DNA from: a virus
Virus record (IMG/VR): IMGVR_UViG_3300039412_000320
DNA: 64,000 nucleotides
Direction: 5' to 3' (one strand)
The position numbers and the translations under genes are program-made. This document shows, in pieces, positions 48,333-62,255 of this stretch; position 1 is the first letter of the stretch; the number at the start of each line of letters is the position of its first letter. The notes under the pieces were generated by a model, which saw nothing but the letters and a program-made list of their open reading frames with translations, ran no database searches and had not been told where the DNA came from.

Positions 48333-49091
48333 ATGAAACAAGTATGTGGAGTTTACTGTATTTCTCTTGTTAATACAGAGCGCAACTATGTCGGGCAAGC
48401 CAAAGATGTTTTCAAACGTTGGAGGGAGCATCGGTGGGCTTTATCTAAGGGTGTGAATAAATCCAAAAGATTGCAAAGGGCGTGGAACAAATACGGTTCC
48501 GCTGCTTTTCTATTTAGGGTTTTGGAAGAATGTCCGTGCGACCCACTTGTGTTACTTACGAGAGAACAATATTGGATTGATGAACTTCAAGCCCACAAGA
48601 AAGGATTTAACTGTTCTCCGGTTGCTGGTTTGTCTACCTTGGGGGTTAAGTTTTCCGCTTCAACTAAGGCTAAGATATCAGAAAAAGCCAAAGGAAGGGT
48701 GATATCGGAAGAAACAAGAAGGAAAATTAGTGATGCCTTGAAGGGTCGATTATTTTCCTCAGAGCATAGGGCTCGATTATCGAAGGTAAGTACTCAAAGA
48801 ATGCTTACCTCTCCTGATAGATTTATTATCGGAAAGTGGTCTCACAACCACCCTCGTTTTGGAAAGGACAACTCGTTTTATGGTAAGCATCACTCGGATG
48901 ATGTAAAATTAATAATGTCAGAAAAACATCAAGGGAAAACAGCCTCTTCTGAGCTTTGTGCTTTACGCTCTAAAAATGCAACTGGGAAAAACAACCCCAT
49001 GTTTGGAAGAAAACATTCAGAAGAGACTAAGGAAAAAATTAGGCAAGCCCGAATTTTACGGGTTACGAGTATTGTAAGACAGGAAAGCTGA
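48333..49091 (+). CDS. GIY-YIG homing endonuclease with NUMOD3-like repeats
   Basis: GVYCISLVNTERNYVGQAKDVFKRWREH is the GIY-YIG motif; it also has repeated S(E/P)ETRRKIS / HSEETKEKIRQAR modules. It sits immediately downstream of nrdJ. Confidence 0.8.
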   Translation: MKQVCGVYCISLVNTERNYVGQAKDVFKRWREHRWALSKGVNKSKRLQRAWNKYGSAAFLFRVLEECPCDPLVLLTREQYWIDELQAHKKGFNCSPVAGLSTLGVKFSASTKAKISEKAKGRVISEETRRKISDALKGRLFSSEHRARLSKVSTQRMLTSPDRFIIGKWSHNHPRFGKDNSFYGKHHSDDVKLIMSEKHQGKTASSELCALRSKNATGKNNPMFGRKHSEETKEKIRQARILRVTSIVRQES

Positions 49092-49107: not shown

Positions 49108-49398
49108 ATGGAAACAATTCTTAAGTTCGTTCTGACTTTCGTGGATGGTACTACGGAGGTGCAGGAGTTGCCCGTCCCATCTGAACATGCTGAGGCTCTC
49201 GCCATGCAGGCGATTGTGCAGTATGCCAGTGTGGGTCTCCTCAAGAAGTTGGAGAAGGAGAATAAATTTGTGCTCATTGCGGCGAGTCAAATCGCCATGG
49301 TAGAGGTGGAGCTTCCTAAAGTCACCCTTGCCACAAGCCTTGATGCCAAAATAGCGGGGAACGCTGCCGATAATATCCGTAAAATCACCCTCGGCTAA
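49108..49398 (+). CDS. Hypothetical protein
   Basis: 96-aa ORF with an AAGGA RBS. Confidence 0.45.
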   Translation: METILKFVLTFVDGTTEVQELPVPSEHAEALAMQAIVQYASVGLLKKLEKENKFVLIAASQIAMVEVELPKVTLATSLDAKIAGNAADNIRKITLG

Positions 49399-49482
49399 GC
49401 CCCGTAGTAGAGTCCCCTATCGTACCCCGCCCCCCGATGGACGCTGCCGGAAATTAAAATTCCTTCGGCGTCCATCCCGCAC

Positions 49483-49508
49483 GTGGTATACTGAGAGTGA
49501 AGGATTTT
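49483..49508 (+). promoter_or_regulatory. Extended -10 promoter plus RBS (conserved motif copy 2)
   Basis: ACGTGGTATACT GAGAGTGAAGGA TTTT ATG. Confidence 0.5.
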
Positions 49509-49766
49509 ATGCGACAGGCGGAGTGTAACTGCCGGTATCCGGGGCCATGCTTCCCCCGCTCTAAGGATGAAGCTGTGGTGGACATTCAAAAAGTTGGACA
49601 GGATGGCACTGCCATACTTCTTCTGCATCACATCAAAGCAGGACCTTTCCCCATTCACAACATCCGCAGTGTTAAGACCAACCTGATTTTTTTTCTCAAA
49701 AGCAATCAGCAGAGGCACCGTAATTTGCGGGTTCTGAATCGGGGTCCAGCGAAGTATTACTCTTAG
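49509..49766 (+). CDS. Hypothetical small Cys-rich protein
   Basis: 85-aa ORF (MRQAECNCRYPGPCF...) directly downstream of the conserved promoter/RBS motif. It overlaps a minus-strand ORF of equal plausibility. Confidence 0.4.
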   Translation: MRQAECNCRYPGPCFPRSKDEAVVDIQKVGQDGTAILLLHHIKAGPFPIHNIRSVKTNLIFFLKSNQQRHRNLRVLNRGPAKYYS

Positions 49767-49774
49767 GTGAGTCT

Positions 49775-50242
49775 ATGGTCGTGGAATTGCGTCAAATCGC
49801 ACTGTACCCCGAATCGGGGAAGCTGTGTCGGCTCCCGTACCCCGGTCATCCGAAGGGCTGTCCATGTTACGGACATAAAGTAGGGTGCCCCCCTGAGTGC
49901 GTCCGGTTTGTTGATAAGATAGATACCTCCCAACCCGTTTACGCTATAATCAATGAATTCGACTTAGCAAACCATATGCGAAGGATGAAGTTGCGTCATC
50001 CGCAGTGGTCGGAACGGCAACTTCGGTGTTGCCTGTACTGGCAGACCGGGCCACGCAAGAAGCTCGCTGCCAAGGTTACGGCGTTTCTCGTGGAGCATGA
50101 GGATTATGTCGCTGATTTCTGTCCCGAGGCGGAGGGGGTGAATGTCACTCAGACTCTCCGATTATCTGGTATTAACTTAGAGTGGCCTCCGAGGAAAATA
50201 GCTCGGCAAGTCGCCTTCGTCGGCGTCCCAAAGGAGAAATAA
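49775..50242 (+). CDS. Hypothetical Cys-rich protein
   Basis: 155-aa ORF with the cysteine cluster CRLPYPGHPKGCPCYGHKVGCPPEC. Its stop overlaps the start of the peptidase gene. Confidence 0.5.
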   Translation: MVVELRQIALYPESGKLCRLPYPGHPKGCPCYGHKVGCPPECVRFVDKIDTSQPVYAIINEFDLANHMRRMKLRHPQWSERQLRCCLYWQTGPRKKLAAKVTAFLVEHEDYVADFCPEAEGVNVTQTLRLSGINLEWPPRKIARQVAFVGVPKEK

Positions 50243-50796
50243 TGTCTTGTGTAGCAGCCGTGGTTGAAAAAGGAAAGGTTTGGATGGGCGCTGATTCTGC
50301 GGCCTCTGATGGTGAGGATATGGTGACTCTCACCAACAGGAAGGCATTCTTTAACGGACCCTACTTGATTGGAGCGGTGGGGTCGATGCGTATGACACAG
50401 CTTCTCCAATACAAGCTGGAACCCCCTGCTTACACGGACCCCAAGGTTCCCCTGATAAAGTTCATGGCAACCGAGTTTATTGAGGCGGTGCGCCGGACGT
50501 TCAATGTGGGCGGCTTCATGGCACAGCAGGATGAGCACAGCAGCACCGGGATATTTCTCGTGGCCTTTAGGGGACACATCTTCCGCTTCGAGGGAGACTT
50601 TCAGGTGTTTGAGAGGGTGGACGGCTTTGAGGCAATCGGCTGTGGAAGTCCTTACGCTCTTGGGGCGCTTAGCGTCACCCCTGACGACCCTGCTAAGCCC
50701 CGGCTGGAGAAAGCACTTATGGCGGCGACATATTTCAGCGCCCATGTGCGCAAGCCCCACCTGATACTGAATGAGGATGGCAAGGAAAATTGTTAA
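50242..50796 (+). CDS. HslV/proteasome beta-like Ntn-hydrolase peptidase
   Basis: C-terminal FEAIGCGSPYALGALSV closely parallels HslV AIGSGGPYALAAARAL. The N-terminus MSCVAAVVEKGKVWMGADSAASDG parallels HslV (M)TTIVSVRRNG...GDGQ but has Ser/Cys at the nucleophile position. Start taken at the ATG after AAGGAGAAATA. Confidence 0.6.
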   Translation: MSCVAAVVEKGKVWMGADSAASDGEDMVTLTNRKAFFNGPYLIGAVGSMRMTQLLQYKLEPPAYTDPKVPLIKFMATEFIEAVRRTFNVGGFMAQQDEHSSTGIFLVAFRGHIFRFEGDFQVFERVDGFEAIGCGSPYALGALSVTPDDPAKPRLEKALMAATYFSAHVRKPHLILNEDGKENC

Positions 50797-50828
50797 GGCA
50801 AATTATTTCCTTTAAAATCTTGAAATCT

Positions 50829-50858
50829 GTGGTATAATGTAAGTGGAAGGATTTGATT
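50829..50858 (+). promoter_or_regulatory. Extended -10 promoter plus RBS (conserved motif copy 3)
   Basis: TTGAAATCTGTGGTATAAT GTAAGTGGAAGGA TTTGATT ATG. Confidence 0.5.
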
Positions 50859-50990
50859 ATGAAAAAATTTGTTGGCACTTATCGTGACCGTAGGGTTAAG
50901 ATTGAGGCCATTAGTGCCGGGAAGGCCATCCTTACTGTCAGTAAGATTTTCGGTGTGAAGCCAACCAAGGTCAGCGTTCGTCAAATTTAA
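50859..50990 (+). CDS. Small basic protein (43 aa)
   Basis: MKKFVGTYRDRRVKIEAISAGKAILTVSKIFGVKPTKVSVRQI. It is preceded by the conserved promoter/RBS and followed by a structured 3' region and a terminator. Confidence 0.35.
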   Translation: MKKFVGTYRDRRVKIEAISAGKAILTVSKIFGVKPTKVSVRQI

Positions 50991-51160
50991 GTTTTGATGT
51001 TTTTGAACTACCGACAGTATTATATAGAAGCGAGATGAACATGAAAACGGTCATCACAAACCCGGTTGACACGATAGAAGCGGTCGCCGCAGTGTGTGAG
51101 GGAGGCGATACCTCGCCTTCGGGAGGGCTTGGATAGAAAATCCAAGCAAGGACCCCCGAA

Positions 51161-51189
51161 GGCGCTCGAAAGAGCGCCTTTTGTGTTTT
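51161..51189 (+). terminator. Intrinsic terminator
   Basis: GGCGCTC GAAA GAGCGCC hairpin (GNRA loop) followed by TTTTGTGTTTT. Confidence 0.6.
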
Positions 51190-51202
51190 AAGGAGACTTT
51201 TT

Positions 51203-51281
51203 ACTCCGGTGAGTCGAGCGGCTAAGACACCTGCCTTACAAGCAGGTAAACTCGTGGGTTCGAGTCCCACCCGGAGTACCA
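51203..51281 (+). tRNA. tRNA, anticodon UAC (Val) by manual fold
   Basis: Acceptor ACTCCGG/CCGGAGT. Anticodon arm CCTGC-CTTACAA-GCAGG has a loop identical to E. coli tRNA-Val(UAC). T arm GTGGG-TTCGAGT-CCCAC. CCA is encoded. Confidence 0.75.
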
Positions 51282-51292
51282 AAATTAAATAT

Positions 51293-51370
51293 GCCCCGGT
51301 AGCTTAGTGGCTTCAAAGCGCCACCTTCACACGATGGAGAACACAGGTTTGAGTCCTGTTCGGGGCACCA
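51293..51370 (+). tRNA. tRNA, anticodon CAC (Val?) by manual fold
   Basis: Acceptor GCCCCGG/TCGGGGC. D stem GCTT/AAGC. Anticodon arm CCACC-TTCACAC-GATGG (one mismatch). T arm ACAGG-TTTGAGT-CCTGT. CCA is encoded. Confidence 0.7.
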
Positions 51371-51604
51371 AGTTCTGGTTGACAGTAATGTCTACCAGAT
51401 GTCAACGTATACGGCTAATCCGGCTGACGACCGGTGTTATCGGCGACTTACGTTAAGAGCCGCCCTGTTTTAAGCCTTGTGGCGGGTAACCGCAGCGGTC
51501 ATAGACGACTGTAAATAGAAGGGCATCCAAGGCTGGCCTCTCCCGTTCGATTTGGGATACTGTGCTCATGGGTATGGTAAGCCAGCCCACAAGGCGAAAG
51601 ATTT

Positions 51605-51678
51605 GCAGGGGTAGCACAATGGCAGTGCGGGACGTTGCCAACGTTCATACGGGAGTTCGATTCTCCTCCTCTGCTCCA
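51605..51678 (+). tRNA. tRNA-Gly (GCC)
   Basis: Acceptor GCAGGGG/CCTCTGC. D arm GCAC-AATGGCA-GTGC. Anticodon arm GGACG-TTGCCAA-CGTTC. T arm GGGAG-TTCGATT-CTCCT. CCA is encoded. Confidence 0.85.
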
Positions 51679-51685
51679 AGTTTGT

Positions 51686-51759
51686 GGGGCCATCGTCTAA
51701 TGGGAGGACTTCTGCCTTGCACGCAGAAAACCGGGGTTCGACCCCCCGTGGTTCCACCA
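51686..51759 (+). tRNA. tRNA-Ala (UGC)
   Basis: Acceptor GGGGCCA/TGGTTCC with G3:U70. Anticodon arm TCTGC-CTTGCAC-GCAGA. T arm CGGGG-TTCGACC-CCCCG. CCA is encoded. Confidence 0.85.
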
Positions 51760-51763
51760 AAGT

Positions 51764-52312
51764 TTAGGCATACTTAGACATCCCTCGGGATTGTCTTCCG
51801 TTGCCTTTATTTCGACCACAGAAAGTTGGAGTCTGGCTGTTGCAGTTTGGACAAGTTAAGCGGACGTTGTCTGGTTTACAGTTTCCAGCATCTCCATCAA
51901 TGTGGTCTACGACTGGAATAAGGGGTTTGTTGCACCAAACGAGCAGCATACCGCAGATTTCACAGTTATTTCCTCTTTTTGAGATGAGGATTTTGCGGAT
52001 GGTTTTTCGGTGCTTGACTCCCCCTAGTTCAAACTGTTCTAGGGCCTTTGCATGGAGGTAGTGCCCACGTCCTTTCGGTTCTGGTTTCGGTTTTTTTGGT
52101 CTCTTTGCGTTGCTTGCTTTTGCCGAACAAGAACTGGAGCAATATGTGTTATCAAACCGTTTGTTGTAGGGGATGGATGCTTCGCATACGGGGCAACGTT
52201 TAGGGCTGAGCATGTATTTAGCTTCATTTTTAGCAGTCCGGCTCTTGTTGCTGCATGCTAGCGAACAATAGATGTGGTTTGCTGGTGTATTACAGACTGG
52301 GCATTGATTCAT
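51764..52312 (-). CDS. HNH homing endonuclease
   Basis: VDHIDGDAGNCKPDNVRLTCPNCN is the classic HNH core; there are several CxxC pairs upstream. Start placed at the internal Met (MNQCPVCN). The longer ORF-track start at 52363 would overlap the tRNA-Gly at 52326. Confidence 0.65.
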   Translation of the reverse strand: MNQCPVCNTPANHIYCSLACSNKSRTAKNEAKYMLSPKRCPVCEASIPYNKRFDNTYCSSSCSAKASNAKRPKKPKPEPKGRGHYLHAKALEQFELGGVKHRKTIRKILISKRGNNCEICGMLLVWCNKPLIPVVDHIDGDAGNCKPDNVRLTCPNCNSQTPTFCGRNKGNGRQSRGMSKYA

Positions 52313-52325
52313 AGTTGTTTTTTGG

Positions 52326-52400
52326 GCGGGATTGATGTCAATGGTAGCATGCCACGCTTCCAACGTGGTCGTACCGATTCGACTTCGGTATCCCGCTCCA
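52326..52400 (+). tRNA. tRNA-Gly (UCC)
   Basis: Acceptor GCGGGAT/ATCCCGC. Anticodon arm CCACG-CTTCCAA-CGTGG. T arm ACCGA-TTCGACT-TCGGT. CCA is encoded. Confidence 0.85.
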
Positions 52401-52446
52401 ACCTCCTATAAAAGGAGGTCGAAAGTCGGTTTTCGCTAAAGTTTAG

Positions 52447-52520
52447 GCGGGTATGGTATATTGGGTGTGCCCAACCTTCCCAAGGTTGTGAAACGGATTC
52501 GATTCCCATGTCCCGCTCCA
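52447..52520 (+). pseudogene. Degenerate tRNA-Gly-like element (anticodon CCC), probable pseudo-tRNA
   Basis: Its ends (GCGGGTA...GTCCCGCTCCA) match the neighbouring Gly tRNAs and it has a clean anticodon arm CAACC-TTCCCAA-GGTTG. The T stem (ACGGA/CCCAT) does not pair and acceptor pairs 6 and 7 are mismatched. It also contains TGGTATATT, an extended -10-like sequence. Confidence 0.4.
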
Positions 52521-52681
52521 AGATTGTAGTCACTCTAAGGGCTGTCGAAGCTGACGAGTGGCGAGGTTCTACCAGCAGGGTCCCTCAGTAAGGGGGACTG
52601 TGGTGGTTCCCCTGAAAAGGGACCCCGAGCAGTAGAACCTGCGGATGACTAGCTTAACCAGCCGGTTGTCCCGAATTTTGC

Positions 52682-52783
52682 GGGTGTAGCTTAATCAGAG
52701 CGGTGGTCCACCAGACCACGCCGTGTCCGGGCTTGATATCAAGTCAGGCATGTTGTACCGGCTGAACGCCGGTCGCCCGCTCC
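52682..52783 (+). ncRNA. tRNA-Gly-like element with a ~37-nt insertion between the anticodon arm and T arm
   Basis: It shares its 5' end GCGGGTGTAG and 3' end CGCCCGCTCCA with tRNA-Gly(CCC) at 58750. The acceptor pairs, the anticodon-like arm is GTGGT-CCACCAG-ACCAC, the T-like arm is ACCGG-CTGAACG-CCGGT, and there is a long extra region containing the palindrome CTTGATATCAAG. Confidence 0.4.
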
Positions 52784-52790
52784 AGTTTGT

Positions 52791-52865
52791 GGGCCTGTAG
52801 CTCAGCGGGAGAGCGCTTGCTCGACAAGCAAGAGGTGGTAGGCTCGACCCCTACCGGGCGCACCA
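52791..52865 (+). tRNA. tRNA, anticodon GAC (Val?) with C33
   Basis: Acceptor GGGCCTG/CGGGCGC (6 of 7 pairs). D arm GCTC-AGCGGGA-GAGC. Anticodon arm CTTGC-TCGACAA-GCAAG. T arm GTAGG-CTCGACC-CCTAC. CCA is encoded. The unusual C at position 33 lowers confidence in the anticodon call. Confidence 0.65.
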
Positions 52866-52877
52866 AAGTTTGGGACC

Positions 52878-52958
52878 GGAGCTTAAGCAGAACCTTCTGC
52901 CATCGGAAGAGCGTAGTGTTTACAACACTTGGGGGTGGGAATCCCTCCGGCTCCACCA
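52878..52958 (+). ncRNA. tRNA-like element ending in CCA, non-canonical
   Basis: 3' end CGGCTCC-A-CCA with T-like arm GGGGG-TGGGAAT-CCCTC and a 5' partner GGAGCTT. The interior (hairpins GCAG-AACCTT-CTGC and GTGTT-TAC-AACAC) cannot be folded into a standard cloverleaf by hand. Confidence 0.3.
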
Positions 52959-53044
52959 AGAACGACGCTGGGTTCGTGCTCCAGAAGTGGGTGACACGAC
53001 GCCAAGGAGAGGGGTTAACAGCCCGGAGAGTAGGACCAGCGTCA

Positions 53045-53695
53045 TCAAGTTTTGGGTACGTCGCCTAATGGGATGGCACTTCCCTCGCACGGAAGAACGA
53101 TTGCGGGTTCGACTCCCGCCGTATCCACCAAGTTTTTGAAAGTATATAGTCCATCCTTAGCGATGAAGTGTTCATCTTCATGGCAGGTGGGGCAAAGGAT
53201 TTCAAGGTTTTCAGGTTTGTTGTTTTTTCGATTGCGGTCTATATGGTGAACCCGCAGAACTGGGGTAAAGCGGGCGTATCCACAACGATTGCATTTTTTT
53301 GGATGATGTTTGAATGCAATTTCTCGATACGCCGCTCCACCGTTAGTGTAATGGTCTGGTCTCATATCATGAAATGCCTCACCGGATAGGATAGACTGAG
53401 CGTGGTCTTTACATGCCCGTGAGCAAAAAAGCAGACCAGATTTTGATGCTTTAATTTGAGCGGGGCGTTTTTCAAAGCTAGTAAAGCAAAATGAGCATTT
53501 TACAGTAACTCTTGTTCTACTAGCAACCCCCGAGCACTCTCTTGAGCAGTATTGACCATTAGAGTGTTTGGGTAAGTAAAAAGGCCTTTTGCATGTGGGA
53601 AGTGTACAGTAATGAAGAAACAGCCTTCTTGGCTTCCCATCGTAGAGTGTAGATATTATTGATTCTTCGGGTGGATTTGATATGTCAGTATGCAA
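53045..53695 (-). CDS. HNH homing endonuclease
   Basis: RVHHIDRNRKNNKPENLEILCPTCHEDEH is the HNH core. The stop-to-stop ORF runs across the tRNA-Ala(CGC) gene on the opposite strand. Confidence 0.65.
   Translation of the reverse strand: MHTDISNPPEESIISTLYDGKPRRLFLHYCTLPTCKRPFYLPKHSNGQYCSRECSGVASRTRVTVKCSFCFTSFEKRPAQIKASKSGLLFCSRACKDHAQSILSGEAFHDMRPDHYTNGGAAYREIAFKHHPKKCNRCGYARFTPVLRVHHIDRNRKNNKPENLEILCPTCHEDEHFIAKDGLYTFKNLVDTAGVEPAIVLPCEGSAIPLGDVPKT
53054..53130 (+). tRNA. tRNA-Ala (CGC)
   Basis: Acceptor GGGTACG/CGTATCC with G3:U70. Anticodon arm CTTCC-CTCGCAC-GGAAG. T arm GCGGG-TTCGACT-CCCGC. CCA is encoded. Confidence 0.8.
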
Positions 53696-53737
53696 GTGTG
53701 ATTACCTCCACCTATGTATTTGATAGTTGATTTTCAC

Positions 53738-53811
53738 GGCCTGTTCGTCTATCGGCAGGACAGCAGATTCTCAATCTGTAAAGAGGGGTTCGATTCCCCT
53801 ACGGGCTACCA
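53738..53811 (+). tRNA. tRNA, anticodon CUC (Glu) by manual fold
   Basis: Acceptor GGCCTGT/ACGGGCT. Anticodon arm GCAGA-TTCTCAA-TCTGT. T arm AGGGG-TTCGATT-CCCCT. CCA is encoded. Confidence 0.75.
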
Positions 53812-53818
53812 AATTCAT

Positions 53819-53895
53819 GGGGTCGTAGACAAGTGGCTTAAGTCGCCAGATTCTCAATCTGGAAACCGTGGGTTCAAATCCCATCGGCCCTGCCA
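53819..53895 (+). tRNA. tRNA, anticodon CUC (Glu?) by manual fold; second copy with a different body
   Basis: Acceptor GGGGTCG/CGGCCCT. Anticodon arm CCAGA-TTCTCAA-TCTGG. T arm GTGGG-TTCAAAT-CCCAT. Discriminator G. CCA is encoded. Confidence 0.75.
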
Positions 53896-53907
53896 AGTGG
53901 AGATGTT

Positions 53908-54105
53908 GTGGCAACGTTGACGCTGGACATAAACGAGGAAGCGAAGTTCAAGGCTTGGGAGAAAGAGCACAAGAAAAAGTGCAAACTCCGGCCCGGTACG
54001 TGTGGTGACCTTTACAGCTTCAACATCTGCCCAAGTGGTATTGGGGATTTTATCAGTGTTCACTGCCCGTGTGGAGCACAAGCAGACCTGACGGGAAGTT
54101 TGTAA
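53908..54105 (+). CDS. Small Cys-rich protein (zinc-ribbon-like)
   Basis: 65-aa ORF with a GTG start after GGAG. Contains CKLRPGTCGD...CPSGIGDFISVHCPCG. Confidence 0.35.
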   Translation: MATLTLDINEEAKFKAWEKEHKKKCKLRPGTCGDLYSFNICPSGIGDFISVHCPCGAQADLTGSL

Positions 54106-54375
54106 AAGGCAAGACCATGAGCCTATGGATAACATCATTCACAAACTGCTGGTATACGAGCCAATTCGTATATTTGATGAGTTTAGCCACTGGATTGTGG
54201 TAGGATGGATGATTCTCCATACGTTGAGTTGGGCGATAGTGGAAGGATGCCGACTCTACTGGTCAACGAAAATAAAGATTAGGCGCATTTTCATACAAGA
54301 TGTCGCCGAAGAGTAACGCACCTGTCGCCAAGTGGAAAGGCATAATTTGAACTACCAACCCCCTTTATAGGGGTT

Positions 54376-54888
54376 ATGATGCTTATTTGCAAAAATTGCG
54401 GTGGGTATATTCCATCAAGGGTAAATGTTGATGGGAAAATAAAAAAGCTGAACGGTCGCAGGTATTGTTTATCCTGTAGCCCATTTAAGGGAAAGAAATT
54501 TAATTATGAAACTGACCGGGATGAGAATAGAAATTTCCACTGCCGCTTATGTGGTCAGAACACCGGTCCTCGCAGGCGTATGTGTAATACCTGTGTATCC
54601 CGCATTAGACGTTTTCGAGCTAAACGTACAGCCGTAAAGTGGCTTGGAGGAAAATGCAATCGGTGTGGATGGGTCGGAGACATTGCGGCTTTTGAGTTTC
54701 ACCACCCCGGAGACAACAAAGAGTTCGATATTGGTACGGTTAGTAACAGAGCATGGGCAACGATAGTCAAAGAATTAAAAAAATGTGAATTACTCTGTTC
54801 CAACTGTCATCGTACCGAACATCATGGCATCCGTGATGAGAATTTCTTAAAAATAGCGGATGAATATGGTGGAAAAATTTATGTTTAG
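54376..54888 (+). CDS. HNH homing endonuclease
   Basis: N-terminal CxxC pairs. C-terminal FEFHHPGDNKEFDIG...CELLCSNCHRTEHH is the HNH core. Confidence 0.7.
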   Translation: MMLICKNCGGYIPSRVNVDGKIKKLNGRRYCLSCSPFKGKKFNYETDRDENRNFHCRLCGQNTGPRRRMCNTCVSRIRRFRAKRTAVKWLGGKCNRCGWVGDIAAFEFHHPGDNKEFDIGTVSNRAWATIVKELKKCELLCSNCHRTEHHGIRDENFLKIADEYGGKIYV

Positions 54889-54889
54889 T

Positions 54890-54963
54890 GACTCGGATTC
54901 CGAATGGTTAGGAGGCGGTCTGCAAAACCGTTTAAGTGGGTTCGATTCCCATCCGGGTCTCCA
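54890..54963 (+). tRNA. tRNA-Cys (GCA)
   Basis: Acceptor GACTCGG/CCGGGTC. Anticodon arm GCGGT-CTGCAAA-ACCGT. T arm GTGGG-TTCGATT-CCCAT. CCA is encoded. The gene starts 2 nt after the HNH stop. Confidence 0.85.
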
Positions 54964-54969
54964 GTTTAA

Positions 54970-55046
54970 GCACGGGTACCCAAGCGGCTTAAGGGACAGG
55001 TCCGCAAAACCTGCATTCATAGGTTCAAATCCTATCCCGTGCTCCA
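54970..55046 (+). tRNA. tRNA, anticodon GCA-like (Cys?) with C33
   Basis: Acceptor GCACGGG/CCCGTGC. D arm CCC-AAGCGGCTTAA-GGG. Anticodon arm CAGGT-CCGCAAA-ACCTG. T arm ATAGG-TTCAAAT-CCTAT. CCA is encoded. Confidence 0.65.
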
Positions 55047-55155
55047 AGTGAGGTCATGGCTACCATTGACCACGTAGTGGGTGCGGGCAAAATGATGAGG
55101 CTGCTGCCCGCCTTTGTACTCCCAAACGTGGATACTTCGCAGCCTCAAACTTTAT

Positions 55156-55233
55156 ACCGTGGAAGACAAAGTCGTCGAGTCCTCTGGCTTTCAACCAGAG
55201 CATTAGCGGGTCCGAGTCCCGTCCACGGTACCA
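55156..55233 (+). tRNA. tRNA-Glu (UUC)
   Basis: Acceptor ACCGTGG/CCACGGT. Anticodon arm TCTGG-CTTTCAA-CCAGA. T arm GCGGG-TCCGAGT-CCCGT. CCA is encoded. Confidence 0.8.
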
Positions 55234-55238
55234 ACTCT

Positions 55239-55332
55239 GGGGGATAGCACCGACGTGCAGGCAGGTCCTATAAACCTGTAGTTGCGGCTGATTACCGTGC
55301 TCGGCGGGGATTGACACCCCGGTCCCCTACCA
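55239..55332 (+). ncRNA. 94-nt tRNA-like element (class II-like, non-canonical)
   Basis: 7-bp acceptor GGGGGAT/GTCCCCT plus A-CCA. T-like arm CGGGG-ATTGACA-CCCCG. Anticodon-like arm CAGGT-CCTATAA-ACCTG. Long extra arm with a GCGG/CCGT hairpin. The D region is a tight GCAC-CGAC-GTGC hairpin with no GG. It is followed by TTTTTT. Confidence 0.4.
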
Positions 55333-55368
55333 TTTTTTAAGAATCTCAGTATTAGTCCTTGGGAGCAT

Positions 55369-55575
55369 ATGATGAAAAAGGAAAAAATCAGGGATTACGA
55401 GGTTCAGGCAAAACTCACACTCTACACCAGTACCACTGTTTCGGCCCGGTCTTTAGAGGAAGCGACTGAAAAGTCAAAAAACCTTAAGGAGCAGGATTTC
55501 GTAGACTTCAACGGTGATTACATCGATGGTAATATGCGGATTACCGGAGTCTATGAGTCTGGGTTTGAACTATAA
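55369..55575 (+). CDS. Hypothetical small protein
   Basis: 68-aa ORF between the tRNA block and the tmRNA. Confidence 0.4.
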   Translation: MMKKEKIRDYEVQAKLTLYTSTTVSARSLEEATEKSKNLKEQDFVDFNGDYIDGNMRITGVYESGFEL

Positions 55576-55675
55576 GTAATGTGACGGTTTGGGACACTCC
55601 GGTGGTTACATAAGGGACATGCCTTAGGGCACTACGCTCACACTGGGTAGCATATATGCGGTGTCCCGTTTAATG

Positions 55676-56026
55676 TGGGGGCGTTCTGGTTTCGACGGGA
55701 GCGCTCATTGCAGGAAGGCACGCCGGGAGGTTACCCTGCCCGTAACAAGGGTTAACAACGCAATTGCCACAGCGCAATATGCATTTGCTTAATCGCTAGA
55801 TTAGGCACGCTTGCTCTGCTTTAGCCTGTCGGGTAGAGGCCAAGCGCCGATAGAGAGGCTGCGACCGGGGATGCAGCCGATATCCGGCGAGATAAAGGCT
55901 TGCACCGTGGTTCTGATATGCCTGTTTCAGCAGAGTCATGGCAAAGAGCAGTACGAAGCAGGATAAGCGTGTAGTCTTCTTGTTGTGACACTTTTCGGAC
56001 CTGGGTTCAAATCCCAGCGCCTCCAC
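55676..56026 (+). ncRNA. ssrA: tmRNA (transfer-messenger RNA)
   Basis: 5' end GGGGGCGTTCTGGTTTCGACGGG matches the tmRNA consensus GGGGCUGAUUCUGGAUUCGACGGG. The 3' tRNA-like end CTGGG-TTCAAAT-CCCAG CGCCTCC A CCA pairs with the 5' end. An internal tag ORF GCA ATT GCC ACA GCG CAA TAT GCA TTT GCT TAA encodes (ANN)AIATAQYAFA*. Confidence 0.8.
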
Positions 56027-56208
56027 CAAAAAATTTATGGCTTCCGCCAAATGTTCCAAATGCAAGCATCGTAAATACAAAAAGCCCTGCACCGTAAGGG
56101 TCAAGGTCAAGGGGTGGATGAAGAGTATCCCGCCCGGATGGCAACAGGATTATGAACCCTGCGGGTGCAAGGAGACGGTGTGAGTAATTGCGACCGCTGA
56201 TATCCATT

Positions 56209-56820
56209 ATGAGTTGCCACGCTCACCGTCGCTGGCAGCAGCAACTCAGGGAAACATGGTTGAGAGAGTGCCCGGTTGATTATCGGTTTTTCTTGGGTAG
56301 TCCCAAATTGGAAAATGCTGATGATGATGAGGTTTCGCTGAATGTTTCTGACACATACGGAGACCTCTCATCCAAGGTCCAAGCTGCATATCAATGGGTG
56401 ATAATGTACAGCTATGACCACGTTTTTAAGTGTGATGTTGATACCTATGTTTGCACCCCTCGGTTACTCCGGTCGGGGTTTGAGCGGCATGACCATATAG
56501 GACAACGGGGTGTGGGGGAAAATAACCAACCCTACGGAGGCTCCGGGTACTGGCTCAGTAGGAAAGCGTTAGAGTTTCTTGCGTCAGCGCCCTGCTTAAA
56601 GGACACCCGTTGCTACAACGATGAGGATTGGTGGGTATGGGCAACGCTGTCATTTAATAGCGTTTGTCCCACAGAGCACGATGGTCGTTACAGTATGACG
56701 GAGGGAAGGGTCCCTCTCCCGGAAAACGACATCATCACTTACCACCCACACACACTTACCACCGAAGAACGTTTCATGGGCATTCAAATGGTCCACGAAA
56801 AGGCCAAGGAGATTAGATGA
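56209..56820 (+). CDS. GT31-family (Fringe/beta-1,3-galactosyltransferase-like) glycosyltransferase
   Basis: HRRWQQQLRETW fits the GT31 signature RR..IR.TW. It also has a DxD-like KCDVDTYV and YGGSGYWLSRKAL (GT31 GGGyvlSr motif). Start taken at the ATG at 56209; the ORF track starts at TTG 56188. Confidence 0.6.
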   Translation: MSCHAHRRWQQQLRETWLRECPVDYRFFLGSPKLENADDDEVSLNVSDTYGDLSSKVQAAYQWVIMYSYDHVFKCDVDTYVCTPRLLRSGFERHDHIGQRGVGENNQPYGGSGYWLSRKALEFLASAPCLKDTRCYNDEDWWVWATLSFNSVCPTEHDGRYSMTEGRVPLPENDIITYHPHTLTTEERFMGIQMVHEKAKEIR

Positions 56821-56833
56821 ATTTGGTAGCACT

Positions 56834-56870
56834 ATGTAGTGTGAGATGTAGTGTGAGATGTAAGGTGACG
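56834..56870 (+). repeat. Tandem 12-nt direct repeat (ATGTAGTGTGAG x2 plus a degenerate third copy)
   Basis: ATGTAGTGTGAG ATGTAGTGTGAG ATGTAAGGTGACG, directly downstream of the glycosyltransferase stop and upstream of the RNase P RNA-like element. Confidence 0.6.
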
Positions 56871-56959
56871 GCGTGAGCATCGGGAGCATGAGTTACTATC
56901 TTACTTTGAAGGCCCTTGACCCGGATGGGTCGAAGGGAATCTTCGCTCCTAATAATCCC

Positions 56960-57205
56960 AAGTTTGGAAAAGGTTTGTGGACTGGACAACTGCTGCCCCG
57001 CAAGGGGGAGAGGAAAGTCGGAGCTACACAGAGCACCGTGCGGGGTAACGCCCCGGCGCAGTAGCAATACTGCGACAATTAGAGCAACAGAGACGAGCCG
57101 GTTAAGTCCGGGTGAAACGGGCAATCTTCACGGGGAGCAATCTCGAATAGGAGGGGATGAACCTGCTCGGTTCGCTATAACCCTCGGGTTGAGAGCTTGA
57201 CCCCC
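56960..57205 (+). ncRNA. rnpB: RNase P RNA-like element (bacterial type A-like, apparently minimised)
   Basis: Collinear matches to E. coli M1 RNA conserved regions. (1) GAGAGGAAAGUCGGAGCUACACAGAGCA matches GGAGGAAAGUCCGGGCUCCAUAGGGCA. (2) Hairpin CGGGG-UAACG-CCCCG matches CCAGG-UAACG-CCUGG, with compensatory changes. (3) GCAACAGAGA is an exact 10-mer. (4) CCGGGUGAAACGGG matches AGGGUGAAAGGGUG. (5) GAUGAACCUGCUCGGUUCGC matches GACAGAACCCGGCUUAUCGG, with AGUCGG/UCGGUU able to form P4. It has a short GCAA-capped P3. Boundaries are approximate. No credible protein ORF covers the region. Confidence 0.45.
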
Positions 57206-57323
57206 CTAGTAATAGGGGGGGCTAGATTGATGGTTGTCGCCTCGCAAGAGGAACAAAACTCCGCTTATAAGTCCACAAATAATTTAGTGATTTGACTACG
57301 GCAACCTTATTAGAGAGATTGCC

Positions 57324-57788
57324 ATGAAACAAAGTAAGTCACAAAAGCGGTTGAATGCGGACTATACAAGACAGTTAGGTATGAGTCCGGGGTCAGCTAC
57401 CCATAAGCTTACTCGAAACCTTCTTTTTAGGTACATCCAACAAAACCACGATGATGTTTGTTATCGCTGTGGTTCAAAGATTGAGACGTTAGCATCTTTT
57501 AGCATTGAACACAAAGAGCCTTGGCGTAATTCGGACCCGAATCTGTTTTGGGATTTAGAAAATATTTCGTTTGCCCATAAAAAATGCAATATTCAGGCAG
57601 CCCAACACATCGGAAAAAGAGTAATAGGTCCACCGGGAACAAGCTGGTGCTCAAATCACAAAATGTTTTTTCCTGTTGATAGGTTTTATAAAAACCGGTC
57701 AATGTGGAATGGGTTACACCGTCAGTGTAAAGAGTGTCATAAAAATTGGAAGAAGGCTTATAGGTCCACAAAATTTTCAGTATTATAG
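57324..57788 (+). CDS. HNH homing endonuclease
   Basis: CYRCGSKIE...FSIEHKEPWRNSDPNLFWDLENISFAHKKCN is an HNH core with a zinc ribbon. Confidence 0.65.
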   Translation: MKQSKSQKRLNADYTRQLGMSPGSATHKLTRNLLFRYIQQNHDDVCYRCGSKIETLASFSIEHKEPWRNSDPNLFWDLENISFAHKKCNIQAAQHIGKRVIGPPGTSWCSNHKMFFPVDRFYKNRSMWNGLHRQCKECHKNWKKAYRSTKFSVL

Positions 57789-58749: not shown

Positions 58750-58826
58750 GCGGGTGTAGTTCAGTCCGGTAGAACGCCAGCTTCCCAAGCTGGATGTCGT
58801 GGGTTCAAATCCCATCGCCCGCTCCA
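58750..58826 (+). tRNA. tRNA-Gly (CCC)
   Basis: Acceptor GCGGGTG/CGCCCGC. D arm GTTC-AGTCCGGTA-GAAC. Anticodon arm CCAGC-TTCCCAA-GCTGG. T arm GTGGG-TTCAAAT-CCCAT. CCA is encoded. Confidence 0.85.
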
Positions 58827-60803: not shown

Positions 60804-62255
60804 ATGCGCAACCCACTGTTGTGTCCAAAGACGGCTATCTTGACTTCACCCAGTTATCTGGAGTCTCTCTATTCCCTCCTTTCGGGTGACCAAAGAAATG
60901 ACCGGTCCGCTTATCTCGAAGCCCGTCAGCATCTTGGCTCCGCCATCAACACCGTATCGGCAAAGATTCCCCCCAAGAGTCGGTTGACCAGAGATATCCG
61001 CTTTGCTCGCTGGGATATGGAGACCGCTAACGCCTTCGCCAAATCGGGAGATTGGGGCGCAGCAGCAGATAGCCAGCTACACGCTGTCTGGAAACTCCAG
61101 AACGTCGTAGCGGCCCTCCAGCGCAGCAAAAAGGCATACGGGTATGATGTTTGTCTTACCGCTGACTCTCAACTTCCGCTGCTGGACGGAACAGAAATAG
61201 CCATAGTTGACCTTCTAGGAAAGGACCATTTCTGGGTTTATTCAATAAACGAGAAGGGAATGCTTAGACCCGGATACGGGCATGACGCCCGACTGGTTGA
61301 AAAAGATGCCCCCCTACTAGAAGTAAGGTTGGACAACGGTAAAACTATAAGGTGTACCTTTACCGAGAGATTTATGCTAAGAGGGGGAGGATACAAACGG
61401 GCAGCAGAACTTATCCCCGGAGATTCCTTGATGCCTCTCTACAGAGACTTGGCTCCGATTGCTTTTGAGGGTAATGAATATGAAAGGACATACGAGCCGG
61501 GTAGAGAATCGTGGAAGTTTACCCATCGTTTTGCGGAAGCTAGATGTCCAAAGGGGTATGTAAGACATCATAAAGATTTGAATCGCTTCAACAATTCCCC
61601 TGACAATCTCGCTGTTATAACTTGGGAAGAACATCAGAAATTGCATCAAGAGTTGGGAGTTCCAGTTACAGATAAAGGGCGGACGGCACGTAGCCGTAAC
61701 ATGTCCAAAATTAACTCTGACCGCAAGGGGAAACCACGTCCTTGGGCACACTTTCCTCATCCGTGGGTGAATAAAGAAGAAAAGGCCAATATTTTGGTGA
61801 AATACAGGGAGTTGTTGGGGGAAGAGGGGTTTGTTGTTGCCCAGAAGCACAGAAGTCAACTAGCTACCCACAAACGCTGGCACACAGACCGCCAGATAGT
61901 CTCTGCCACTTGTTTGCTTTGTGCCTCCGTTAATCATAAGGTGGTATCAGTCGCATCTGCTGGTACTGCTGATGTATATGATTTTATTGTTGATAAGTAT
62001 CATAATTTCGCTTTGAGTGCCGGGGTTTTTGTACATAACAGTGGGCAAACACAGGGAGAAATTTTCAACGGCTCGGAGGCAATTGCCAACCGGGAAAACC
62101 AGAAGAATATTGACGACACGGCACAGCCGTTTGAGCAGCACCAGAATGTTAAAAATCCACTAAATCTAACAAGGGACTGGGAGGCGGAGAACGACTACCC
62201 CTCGCTCGCTGAAAAGAAGAGCAAGCGGATTCACTGGCCTCCCCGACTGAGATAA
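60804..62255 (+). CDS. Small hypothetical protein interrupted by an HNH-containing intein
   Basis: Exteins are aa 1-116 and the last 71 aa. The central 296 aa show intein termini. Confidence 0.65.
61152..62039 (+). mobile_element. Intein with embedded HNH endonuclease domain
   Basis: Begins [21 protein letters not shown] (block A). Internal [27 protein letters not shown] is an HNH motif. Ends [24 protein letters not shown] followed by +1 Ser (block G, HN|S). Confidence 0.75.

Follow-up and report, generated by a model that had tools for sequence, protein, structure and literature searches.

Non-canonical tRNA-like elements of different histories in a viral tRNA array

The 64,000-nt stretch of IMG/VR virus record IMGVR_UViG_3300039412_000320 analysed here (the window) contains a non-coding RNA island at 51.2–58.8 kb, densely packed with RNA genes on the plus strand. 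We studied a group of abnormal transfer RNA (tRNA)-like elements within the tRNA array of this island. An earlier sequence-only reading had listed four such elements, named (a) to (d) below, and all four were found, on the plus strand. A fifth, at 55156–55233, is the neighbour of (d) and was absent from that list. Elements (a) to (d) have different histories and are not one kind of thing. At default settings ARAGORN called 13 tRNAs in the island: Val (UAC, CAC and GAC), Ala (UGC and CGC), Gly (GCC, UCC and two of CCC), two Glu (CUC) and two Cys (GCA). The CCA end is encoded in all array genes of the window and in nearly all of those in its relatives. The window looks like part of a ~338-kb phage, with long structural-type open reading frames (ORFs), a GIY-YIG gene and several HNH genes; an island protein recurs on contigs of up to 338 kb. 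No close cultured relative was found by blastn against cultured phages.

Relatives were found through proteins that flank the island, using a galactosyltransferase-like protein and an HslV-like peptidase as queries. Contigs L001 (317 kb) and L002 (75 kb) encode proteins ~93% identical to those of the window, and L031 is the nearest relative in gene content. Further relatives are L020, L022 (339 kb) and L023, then L025 to L027, L028 and L029, whose HslV-like protein is 52–58% identical to that of the window, and finally L047, found later through an HNH homolog. The island is syntenic in L001, L020, L022, L023, L025 to L027, L028, L029, L031 and L047. The shared order begins with Val UAC, Val CAC, Gly GCC, Ala UGC, Gly UCC and/or Gly CCC, and Ala GGC. 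It continues with Asp GUC (one or two copies), Val GAC, Ala CGC, Glu CUC (one or two), Cys (one or two) and sometimes Glu UUC, and ends with two non-canonical elements followed by the transfer-messenger RNA (tmRNA) and Gly CCC. In every genome the island decoders serve GNN codons only (Val, Ala, Asp, Glu and Gly, covering nearly all of their anticodons), apart from Cys and UAU. For many of the anticodons there are two genes, with different tRNA bodies (74–75 nt vs 77–79 nt).

Both strands of the window were scanned for a fully paired acceptor stem (7/7) and T stem (5/5) with a 7-nt T loop, a discriminator base and CCA, and only array members were returned. Among the odd elements this strict scan matched (b), (d) and 55156–55233; the acceptor and T stems pair 6/7 and 5/5 in (c), and 5/7 and 3/5 in (a). 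The possibility that the elements are ordinary tRNAs that standard programs would call was borne out for (a) only, and by ARAGORN only. ARAGORN called (a) at default settings and (d) only at the 80% threshold, and it never called (b), (c) or 55156–55233, whether or not intron detection was on. Against the Rfam tRNA family RF00005 (gathering score 29 bits), (a) reached 27.3 bits, and the other four had no match even at E ≤ 10. Canonical calls were therefore lacking for four of the five odd elements at the ARAGORN default, and (a) was below the Rfam gathering score. The elbow signature (G18G19 and T54-Ψ55-C56) is missing from (b), (c), (d) and 55156–55233, and U33 from (b) and (d). A scan of 49–61 kb with 4227 Rfam families (E ≤ 10) found no ribozyme, Y-RNA or tRNA-like family for any odd element or spacer.

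Element (d), also designated I*, lies at 55239–55332 and is a class-II-shaped tRNA with the anticodon UAU. Its length of 94 nt, the hairpin in place of the D arm (GCAC-CGAC-GTGC) and the long extra arm were all as the sequence-only reading had described them. Orthologs lie directly upstream of the tmRNA gene in L001, L022, L023, L025, L028 and L029, giving seven genomes with the window. The family comprises two sequence types that have entirely different acceptor stems (GGGGGAU/GUCCCCU vs CCCGGUG/CACCGGG) and a single architecture, with a 7-bp acceptor stem, 5-bp anticodon stem, 5-bp T stem, A73, an encoded CCA and a 7/5 branch in all seven. The D hairpin has a stem of 4 bp (type 1) or 5 bp (type 2) and a tetraloop of CGAC, CGGC or AGGC, and the variable arm has 4–5 bp and a 7-nt loop similar to C[U/A]GAUUA. 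The anticodon loop C[C/U]UAUAA and A73 are invariant, with C33 in the window copy. The T loop is non-standard (AUUGACA in the window), and the D tetraloop CGAC is without G18G19.

Across the seven sequences, 144 of 147 pair cells in the (d) family are canonical (98%), and 14 of 21 stem positions show compensatory double changes; these counts rest on a manual, motif-anchored segmentation, MAFFT having misaligned the two sequence types. Because pairs are both kept and compensated across genomes, this covariation is strong evidence for a functional RNA with the fold described above. A covariance model built from four type-1 sequences (R1) recovered the type-2 copies at 22–40 bits and nothing else of the kind, and exact motifs combined with R1 gave further hits only on contigs of known relatives. 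R1 did not match (b), and (b) was rejected as a relative of (d). An 8/4 or 9/3 fold was also rejected, the eighth pair being mismatched (A8.G in type 1, A8.A in type 2). In L022 and L025 the default ARAGORN settings suffice for a tRNA-Ile(tat) call of the ortholog, a call that the window copy receives only at the 80% threshold. The L029 ortholog has a weak Rfam match to tRNA-Sec (23.6 bits vs a gathering threshold of 47), in keeping with the Sec-like D arm of (d), and the window copy has none.

We examined how AUA is read in these phages. In the window ORFs AUA makes up 11 per 1000 codons, or 20% of Ile codons. In alignments of orthologous proteins at 35–85% identity, it faces Ile in 50% of cases, Val in 25%, Leu in 10%, Met in 5% and Ser in <1.4%. 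AUU and AUC give the same profile, unlike the comparison codons CUU (Leu, 72%) and UCU (Ser, 57%). AUA therefore means Ile in these phages, and its recoding as Leu or Ser is unlikely. The identity set of E. coli IleRS consists of an NAU anticodon, A37, A38 and A73, and (d) carries A35, U36, A37, A38 and A73 in all seven genomes. ARAGORN found no other AUA decoder in any of the arrays of the window and its relatives. With AUA meaning Ile, the IleRS identity elements present and no other AUA decoder in the arrays, (d) is most likely a working AUA (Ile) decoder with an unorthodox body. It would be cut out by RNase P and would then serve as the phage AUA decoder.

Bacterial LeuRS uses A73 as its discriminator, and the joint presence of A73, a non-Leu anticodon and a long variable arm is known from nematode nev-tRNAs (PMC3333845). 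Element (d) could on these grounds be a class II tRNA mis-charged with Leu or Ser, recoding or mistranslating AUA like nev-tRNA-Ile(UAU). However, AUA faces the same residues as AUU and AUC do, and (d) lacks the D-loop elements used by bacterial LeuRS, so that mis-charging is scarcely credible as an explanation.

The neighbour of (d), at 55156–55233 on the plus strand, is a 78-nt non-canonical tRNA-Glu(UUC)-like gene that we call E*. Its anticodon loop is CUUUCAA, its D stem has 3 bp (GAC/GUC), its D loop is without GG and its T loop is UCCGAGU. Orthologs are present in L001, L023, L025 and L028; in this family all 85 of 85 pair cells are canonical, with compensatory changes at 6 of 17 positions. 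E* is the sole gene with a UUC anticodon in the window, and the same is true of its orthologs in L023, L025 and L028. L022 and L029 have a canonical tRNA-Glu(UUC) only, and L001 has one gene of each type. This interchange of canonical and E*-type genes argues for E* as a functional isodecoder and, by extension, for tolerance of non-canonical tRNA bodies in the island. By the same reasoning as for (d), it would serve as a decoder of GAA (Glu).

Element (b) is an intact tRNA-Gly-like RNA of 105 nt at 52680–52784 on the plus strand. The element is real as first described, with limits 2 and 1 nt beyond the 52682–52783 originally given. Its unconstrained minimum free energy (MFE) fold is a five-arm cloverleaf of −49.6 kcal/mol (z = −3.9, with 0 of 200 shuffled sequences as good). 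The acceptor stem has 7 bp, the D arm 4 bp with a 5-nt loop, and the anticodon and T stems 5–6 bp each. The 31-nt variable arm (52722–52752) forms two 6-bp helices that include the palindrome already noticed in the sequence, CTTGATATCAAG at 52732–52743. No other exact copy of this palindrome occurs in the window, and it was rejected as a repeated protein site. The loops are AAUCA (D), CUGAACG (T) and CCACCAG (anticodon, with C33 and A34). In the MFE fold C32 can form a Watson-Crick pair with G38, giving a 5-nt anticodon loop; a functional 7-nt loop with U33 and a usual base 34 is not present.

The first 10 and last 12 nt of (b) are identical to those of the canonical tRNA-Gly(CCC) at 58750–58826 (plus strand, Rfam tRNA score 70.3 bits). 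The best matches of a covariance model of (b) were all tRNA-Gly genes, headed by 58750, which reached 33.9 bits when the arm was counted as a 31-nt deletion, and the search with this model returned ordinary tRNA-Gly genes only. The sequence-only reading had taken (b) for a copy of that gene carrying an insertion. The derivation from tRNA-Gly and the extra arm hold, but the D, anticodon and T arms differ from 58750 too, and for this reason (b) appears to be a diverged tRNA-Gly paralogue, specific to the window, that gained a 31-nt variable arm, rather than a copy plus an insertion. An intron was rejected: ARAGORN made no call with intron mode or the 80% threshold, and the insertion is in the variable region. 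A group I intron was rejected as well, 31 nt being too short. No homolog of (b) was found in the fetched relatives (word size 7), IMG/VR (exact patterns), JGI metagenomes, GTDB genomes or cultured phages. Being intact, (b) is either young or constrained. The tRNA-Gly identity set of E. coli comprises G1:C72, C2:G71, G3:C70, U73, C35 and C36, and the full set is present in both (a) and (b). Element (b) is probably processed and possibly chargeable with glycine, and its anticodon loop makes it unlikely as a normal decoder.

The main rival to a decoding role is that (d), and perhaps (b), are non-translational tRNA mimics, acting as decoys or antidotes for tRNA-targeting toxins or as regulatory RNAs. 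The B. cereus tRNA(Other) has reportedly been proposed as such a mimic. Similar roles have been proposed for allo-tRNA(UAU), the commonest allo-tRNA class, which (d) matches in its tetraloop D hairpin, long variable arm and UAU anticodon. RNAs of that class are inactive in translation, and in acidobacterial and peat metagenomes they are associated with toxin-antitoxin loci (PMC5389517). A protein partner is suggested by the conserved loop C[U/A]GAUUA of the (d) variable arm, C32-G38 can close the anticodon loop of (b) to 5 nt, and both (b) and (d) are without the elbow signature. However, (d) has the 7/5 geometry expected by EF-Tu and a perfectly kept 7-nt anticodon loop with A37 and A38, plus A73. 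The phage also uses AUA heavily and encodes no other decoder for it, and all other array members are decoders. We consider mimicry a real but rather unlikely alternative; a regulatory or decoy role is possible for (b) and (d), and decoding is preferred for (d).

Between (a) and (b) lies sp1 (52521–52679, plus strand), a conserved structured spacer RNA recognised from its conservation, fold and covariation. It is 99.4% identical to the corresponding spacer in L001 (6644–6802) and 85–87% identical to those in L020, L022 (12850–13008) and L023. It folds at −72 kcal/mol (z = −5.3) with compensatory changes at 6 pairs, and the conserved RNA measures ~110–160 nt. No Rfam family matched sp1 among the 4227 searched at E ≤ 10. 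It contains CUGAYGAG and was considered as a hammerhead ribozyme, but the core does not fit by eye and there is no Rfam hammerhead match. The spacers sp3 (55047–55155), sp2 (52959–53053) and 51371–51604 are kept in relatives at 75–82% identity and may be additional small RNAs.

The island also encodes a bacterial class-A RNase P RNA at 56974–57283 on the plus strand (Rfam RF00010, 185.7 bits). It is present in L001 (11155–11463), L025 (15849–16162) and L028 (16328–16646), at 188–194 bits. At only ~310 nt, this phage RNA has a shortened P12 and lacks one stretch of ~43 nt that the Rfam model contains, which we take to be the P13/P14 region. In a full-text literature search, no description of an RNase P RNA encoded by a phage was found. 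The RNA is likely to be the 5′-processing enzyme of the array.

With sp1 and sp2 flanked by (b) and (c), and with the phage carrying its own RNase P RNA, one may ask if (b) and (c) are only RNase P/RNase Z 'punctuation' that frees these conserved structured RNAs from a polycistronic transcript. Selection would then act on the acceptor/T-arm minihelix and CCA alone, and these are indeed the best-surviving parts of (b) and (c). However, ordinary tRNAs flank the same spacers in relatives, so a special element is not needed, and (b) keeps perfect D, anticodon and variable arms that punctuation does not require. We regard this as improbable.

Element (a), at 52447–52520 on the plus strand, is called tRNA-Gly(ccc) by ARAGORN. 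Its T stem (ACGGA/CCCAT) pairs at only 3/5 positions, in agreement with the unpaired T stem seen in the sequence-only reading, and its acceptor (GCGGGTA/GTCCCGC) at 5/7; the anticodon loop UUCCCAA is normal. The L029 ortholog (12476–12549) is 93% identical and fully paired, and scores 48.6 bits vs 27.3 for (a). Four of the five differences between them are at positions 61–67, and each breaks a pair, including 53:61. The Rfam score of (a) is the lowest of all ARAGORN-called tRNAs in the seven genomes scored, and the only one below gathering. Because of these pair-breaking changes relative to an intact ortholog, and because a canonical tRNA-Gly(CCC) exists at 58750, (a) appears to be a recently crippled, redundant copy of tRNA-Gly(CCC).

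Element (c), at 52872–52958 on the plus strand, measures 81 nt if it starts at 52878 and 87 nt from 52872, a start that is as good. The TGGGAAT T loop reported for it is there, on a 5-bp T stem (GGGGG-TGGGAAT-CCCTC), followed by an ACCA end, and the acceptor pairs 6/7 in either register. The looser criterion that (c) satisfies (6/7 + 5/5) is also satisfied ~17 times elsewhere in the window, so the acceptor/T match is not significant on its own. Its folding is no better than that of shuffled sequence (z = −1.1 for 81 nt, −0.55 for 87 nt), and no consistent arrangement of D arm, anticodon arm and variable region was found in either register. An 8/4 fold is possible (7/8 + 4/4) but brings no improvement over the other folds. 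The 3′ 30 nt match the tRNA-Ala 3′ end of L028 at 24 of 30 positions, and the middle resembles a disrupted Ala anticodon arm. The element sits in the slot of the L031 tRNA-Val(GAC), directly upstream of sp2. No homolog was found in the fetched relatives (word size 7), IMG/VR (exact patterns) or GTDB genomes. From these features (c) looks like a tRNA-derived relic.

Positions 49108–57695 of the window were found at 100% identity in eight contigs, each of a different sample accession. The accessions are ERZ27250114, ERZ27249722, ERZ27250065, ERZ27249792, SRR12951267, SRR5824232, SRR7027753 and SRR13201612. Three of them cover both (b) and (c), which are therefore not assembly artefacts. Strain variants were sought that might show how (b) and (c) evolved, and none was found among these eight contigs. 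Seven of the eight stop within a 0.7-kb stretch (at 52331, 52520, 52556, 52822, 52840, 52982 and 53010). This clustering of contig ends exactly at (a), (b) and (c) suggests branching of the assembly graph, caused by tRNA repeats or by variation among strains.

Decaying duplicates, tRNA-derived regulatory RNAs and endonuclease-related scars had been offered as explanations for the whole set; each fits some elements and none fits all four. Decay suits (a), damaged relative to its intact L029 ortholog, and (c), with its shuffled-like folding and lack of homologs. That all four are decaying duplicates (pseudogenes) of array tRNAs is highly improbable, even though (a) and (c) carry stem-breaking changes, the Ala(GGC), Asp and canonical Glu(UUC) genes of the relatives are gone from the window array, and isoacceptors are redundant. 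The pseudogene reading of (d) is refuted by covariation: across the seven genomes 98% of the (d) pairs persist and 14 positions are compensated, in a neighbourhood where proteins are only ~52–60% identical. For (b), all five helices are perfectly paired, with 0 mismatches in 33 modelled base pairs.

With reasonable though not high confidence, we interpret (d) and E* as conserved non-canonical tRNAs, (b) as an intact Gly derivative, and (a) and (c) as damaged copies. Several points weigh against this interpretation. A long variable arm is not known to us in any natural tRNA-Ile, and (d) is without both halves of the elbow signature. Elements (b) and (c) are single sequences, offering no covariation test, and the intactness of (b) could mean youth. 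Array members are dispensable, because the window is without the tRNA-Asp and tRNA-Ala(GGC) that relatives have, and each member may be under weak selection only. Among described RNAs, those most like (d), allo-tRNA(UAU), were inactive in E. coli translation (PMC5389517), and a class II shape with A73 could draw LeuRS, as in nev-tRNAs (PMC3333845). Finally, the idea that odd tRNA bodies evade nucleases rests on analogy (PMC10264068).

A link between the odd elements and the neighbouring HNH endonucleases, also suggested in the sequence-only reading, holds at the level of the locus, including the tract that contains (a) and a truncated tRNA-Cys; (b) and (d) are not scars. HNH-type endonuclease gene 1 lies at 51764–52363 on the minus strand, with a likely start Met codon at 52312 and a weak match to Pfam HNH_3 (20.6 bits), and it travels with tRNA-Gly(UCC) (52326–52400) and (a). 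The tract 51734–52679 matches the distant L029 at 75% over 959 nt, including the HNH gene, tRNA-Gly(UCC) and tRNA-Gly(CCC). The HNH gene 1 protein is 66% identical to the L029 ORF, and the tRNA-Gly(UCC) of the tract is of a different type. In the close relatives L001 and L031 the slot holds a tRNA-Gly(UCC) and the tract is missing. Since the tract is shared with a distant relative and absent from close ones, endonuclease-associated gene conversion seems to have brought it in.

HNH-like endonuclease gene 3 (54376–54888, plus strand) has an H-N-H type motif and no Pfam match. Ahead of it, 54318–54341 (plus strand) is a truncated 5′ fragment of a tRNA-Cys, comprising the acceptor strand and D arm and identical to the first 24 nt of the L001 tRNA-Cys at 7959–8033. 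Homology to that gene ends after 54341, where the HNH ORF follows, and downstream of the ORF stands a complete, different tRNA-Cys at 54890–54963. A 60%-identical homolog of gene 3 lies directly before tRNA-Cys in L022. The comparison with L001 indicates that 54318–54341 is a true endonuclease-insertion scar, with HNH gene 3 interrupting a resident tRNA-Cys. Evidence of insertion was thus found for 54318–54341, with its intact allele in L001, and for the tract 51734–52679; (b) and (c) adjoin no ORF and have no allele found elsewhere.

HNH endonuclease gene 2 (53045–53695, minus strand) scores above the Pfam HNH cutoff (25.8 bits, ORF 53131–53695), a cutoff also passed by the ORF at 57324–57788. 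The 3′ end of gene 2 overlaps tRNA-Ala(CGC) at 53054–53130. Its 56%-identical homolog in L047 likewise overlaps tRNA-Ala, in a similar array, and no elements like (b) or (c) were found beside it there. Element (a) is a by-product of HNH endonuclease traffic, and (c) probably is too; both would be casualties of gene conversion driven by homing endonucleases in this stretch. The genome is heavily colonised by selfish elements. The close relative L001 lacks two features of the window, a GIY-YIG/NUMOD3 homing endonuclease gene at 48333–49091 and an intein-like insertion of ~890 bp at ~61153–62040 in the ORF 60804–62255.

Mosaicism and altered loops extend to the recognisable tRNAs. The C33 reported earlier in two of them was confirmed. 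A mosaic tRNA-Val(GAC) at 52791–52865 (plus strand) has the anticodon loop TCGACAA and a G2.G71 mismatch. Over its first 46 nt it shares 91% identity with the Ala(ggc) genes in L020, L022 and L023, and its 3′ half does not; the C33 loop came with this 5′ half. The second is a tRNA-Cys(GCA) at 54970–55046 (plus strand, Rfam tRNA score 56.5 bits), with the loop CCGCAAA. U33 and U55 are almost invariant in cellular tRNAs. Among the 96 tRNAs called by ARAGORN in the window, L001, L022, L023, L025, L028 and L029, 15 have C33 and 12 have C55, and their orthologs in other genomes have U at the same positions. The recurrence of C33 and C55 could reflect tolerance, nuclease evasion or C-to-U editing. 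Ala(GGC) and Asp(GUC) have disappeared from the window array, which is also without the canonical Glu(UUC) that three relatives carry. A second case of a hairpin grafted onto a tRNA in this phage family is the tRNA-Asp(GUC) of L028 (12737–12847), which has a clean 33-nt hairpin insertion in the D loop relative to L025 (13183–13260) and is otherwise intact (z = −2.25).

The tmRNA at 55677–56028 (plus strand) has the tag ATAQYAFA and is kept in relatives; the tags of L025 and L029 read ANMQYAFA and AEPLSMYAMA. A terminator-like hairpin at 51158–51181 precedes the first tRNA. A scan for promoters and terminators gave no more sites than shuffled sequence.

The encoded CCA ends, paired isoacceptor bodies and RNase P RNA fit a phage that supplies both the substrates and their processing. 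The sequences, structures, conservation, covariation and mosaicism are observed here, as is the reading of AUA as Ile; expression, processing, charging and decoding of the odd elements, as well as any nuclease evasion, are inferred. Taken further, these huge phages (~320–340 kb) might run a semi-autonomous tRNA system of a reduced RNase P RNA, a tmRNA, a complete set of GNN decoders and re-engineered adaptors that evade host nucleases, a proposal we make tentatively and rate as doubtful. The adaptors would be the Sec-like-armed tRNA-Ile(UAU), the D-arm-variant tRNA-Glu(UUC), the tRNAs with hairpins grafted into the variable arm or D loop and those with the frequent C33 and C55. Their bodies would be processed by the phage enzyme and work in translation, and would be invisible to host nucleases directed at tRNAs. 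In a sub-variant, genomic C33 and C55 would be restored to U by C-to-U editing. If this proposal is true, (d) would be the first tRNA-Ile of bacterial type found in nature to have a long variable arm.

Four of the five odd elements escape standard tRNA finders, although two of these four are under clear structural selection across the family, and phage tRNA inventories and arguments about codon supply are therefore incomplete. If (d) decodes AUA, bacterial translation accepts an Ile adaptor with a long variable arm and no canonical elbow, which would be useful for the design of orthogonal tRNAs. The locus is a natural experiment on how tRNA architecture drifts when a virus supplies both substrate and processing enzyme. 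It also serves to test the proposal that phage tRNAs evolve to escape tRNA-targeting immunity.

Free-standing homing endonucleases are known in phage tRNA clusters, such as SegB of T4 and the F-Tfl HNH enzymes of T5. As in those systems, HNH and GIY-YIG genes lie between or in tRNA genes here, and co-conversion of the flanking tRNA sequence yields mosaic arrays, with duplicated isoacceptors and truncated tRNAs. Unlike them, the cassettes in the window appear to carry a replacement tRNA (Gly(UCC) or Cys), and the outcome includes the crippled copies (a) and (c).

Phage tRNAs have been proposed to evade tRNA-targeting defences (van den Berg 2023, PMC10264068), a T5 tRNA neutralises PARIS (PMC11464382), and evasion of retrons by phage tRNAs has been described (PMC11555353). 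The present array resembles these cases in having isoacceptors with abnormal anticodon loops (the C33 group above) and duplicated isodecoders with different bodies. It differs from the first in its changes at U33 and U55 and its whole-arm remodelling, which the main text of that paper does not mention (PMC10264068). By analogy, nuclease evasion by the odd tRNA bodies is plausible: non-standard elbows, altered T loops, C33 and C55 may plausibly be tolerated, or selected, as poor substrates for host nucleases.

Among described tRNA classes, (d) is like allo-tRNA(UAU) in its anticodon, UAU being predominant among allo-tRNAs, in the tRNA-Sec-like stem and tetraloop of its D arm and in its long variable arm (PMC5389517). 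Both (d) and the allo-tRNAs come from soil and peat metagenomes and lie in polycistrons of irregular tRNAs, in some cases in phages, and allo-tRNAs were discovered through matches to tRNA-Sec, as echoed by the weak tRNA-Sec match of the L029 ortholog (PMC5389517). However, allo-tRNAs have an 8/4 or 9/3 branch, G73 or U73 (Ser identity), stem-destabilising mutations and toxin-antitoxin genes nearby (PMC5389517), whereas (d) has a 7/5 branch, A73 in all seven genomes and well-paired, conserved stems, and lies in a phage decoder array beside a tmRNA. Because of its 7/5 branch and A73, (d) is not a member of the allo-tRNA class. Bacterial tRNA-Sec (RF01852) shares with (d) a D stem closed by a 4-nt loop, as well as the long variable arm, but is 8/5 with UCA and G73, in contrast to the 7/5, UAU and A73 of (d), which falls below the gathering threshold. 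The nematode nev-tRNAs have a class II shape and carry Ile(UAU) and Gly(CCC) anticodons (PMC3333845), and thereby involve the amino-acid families of both (d) and (b). Unlike those eukaryotic, tRNA-Leu-derived and Leu-charged tRNAs (PMC3333845), AUA here means Ile, (b) is Gly-derived and the D arms differ. The set is thus a variant of non-canonical tRNAs, whose nearest counterparts in the literature are allo-tRNA(UAU) and the nev-tRNAs.

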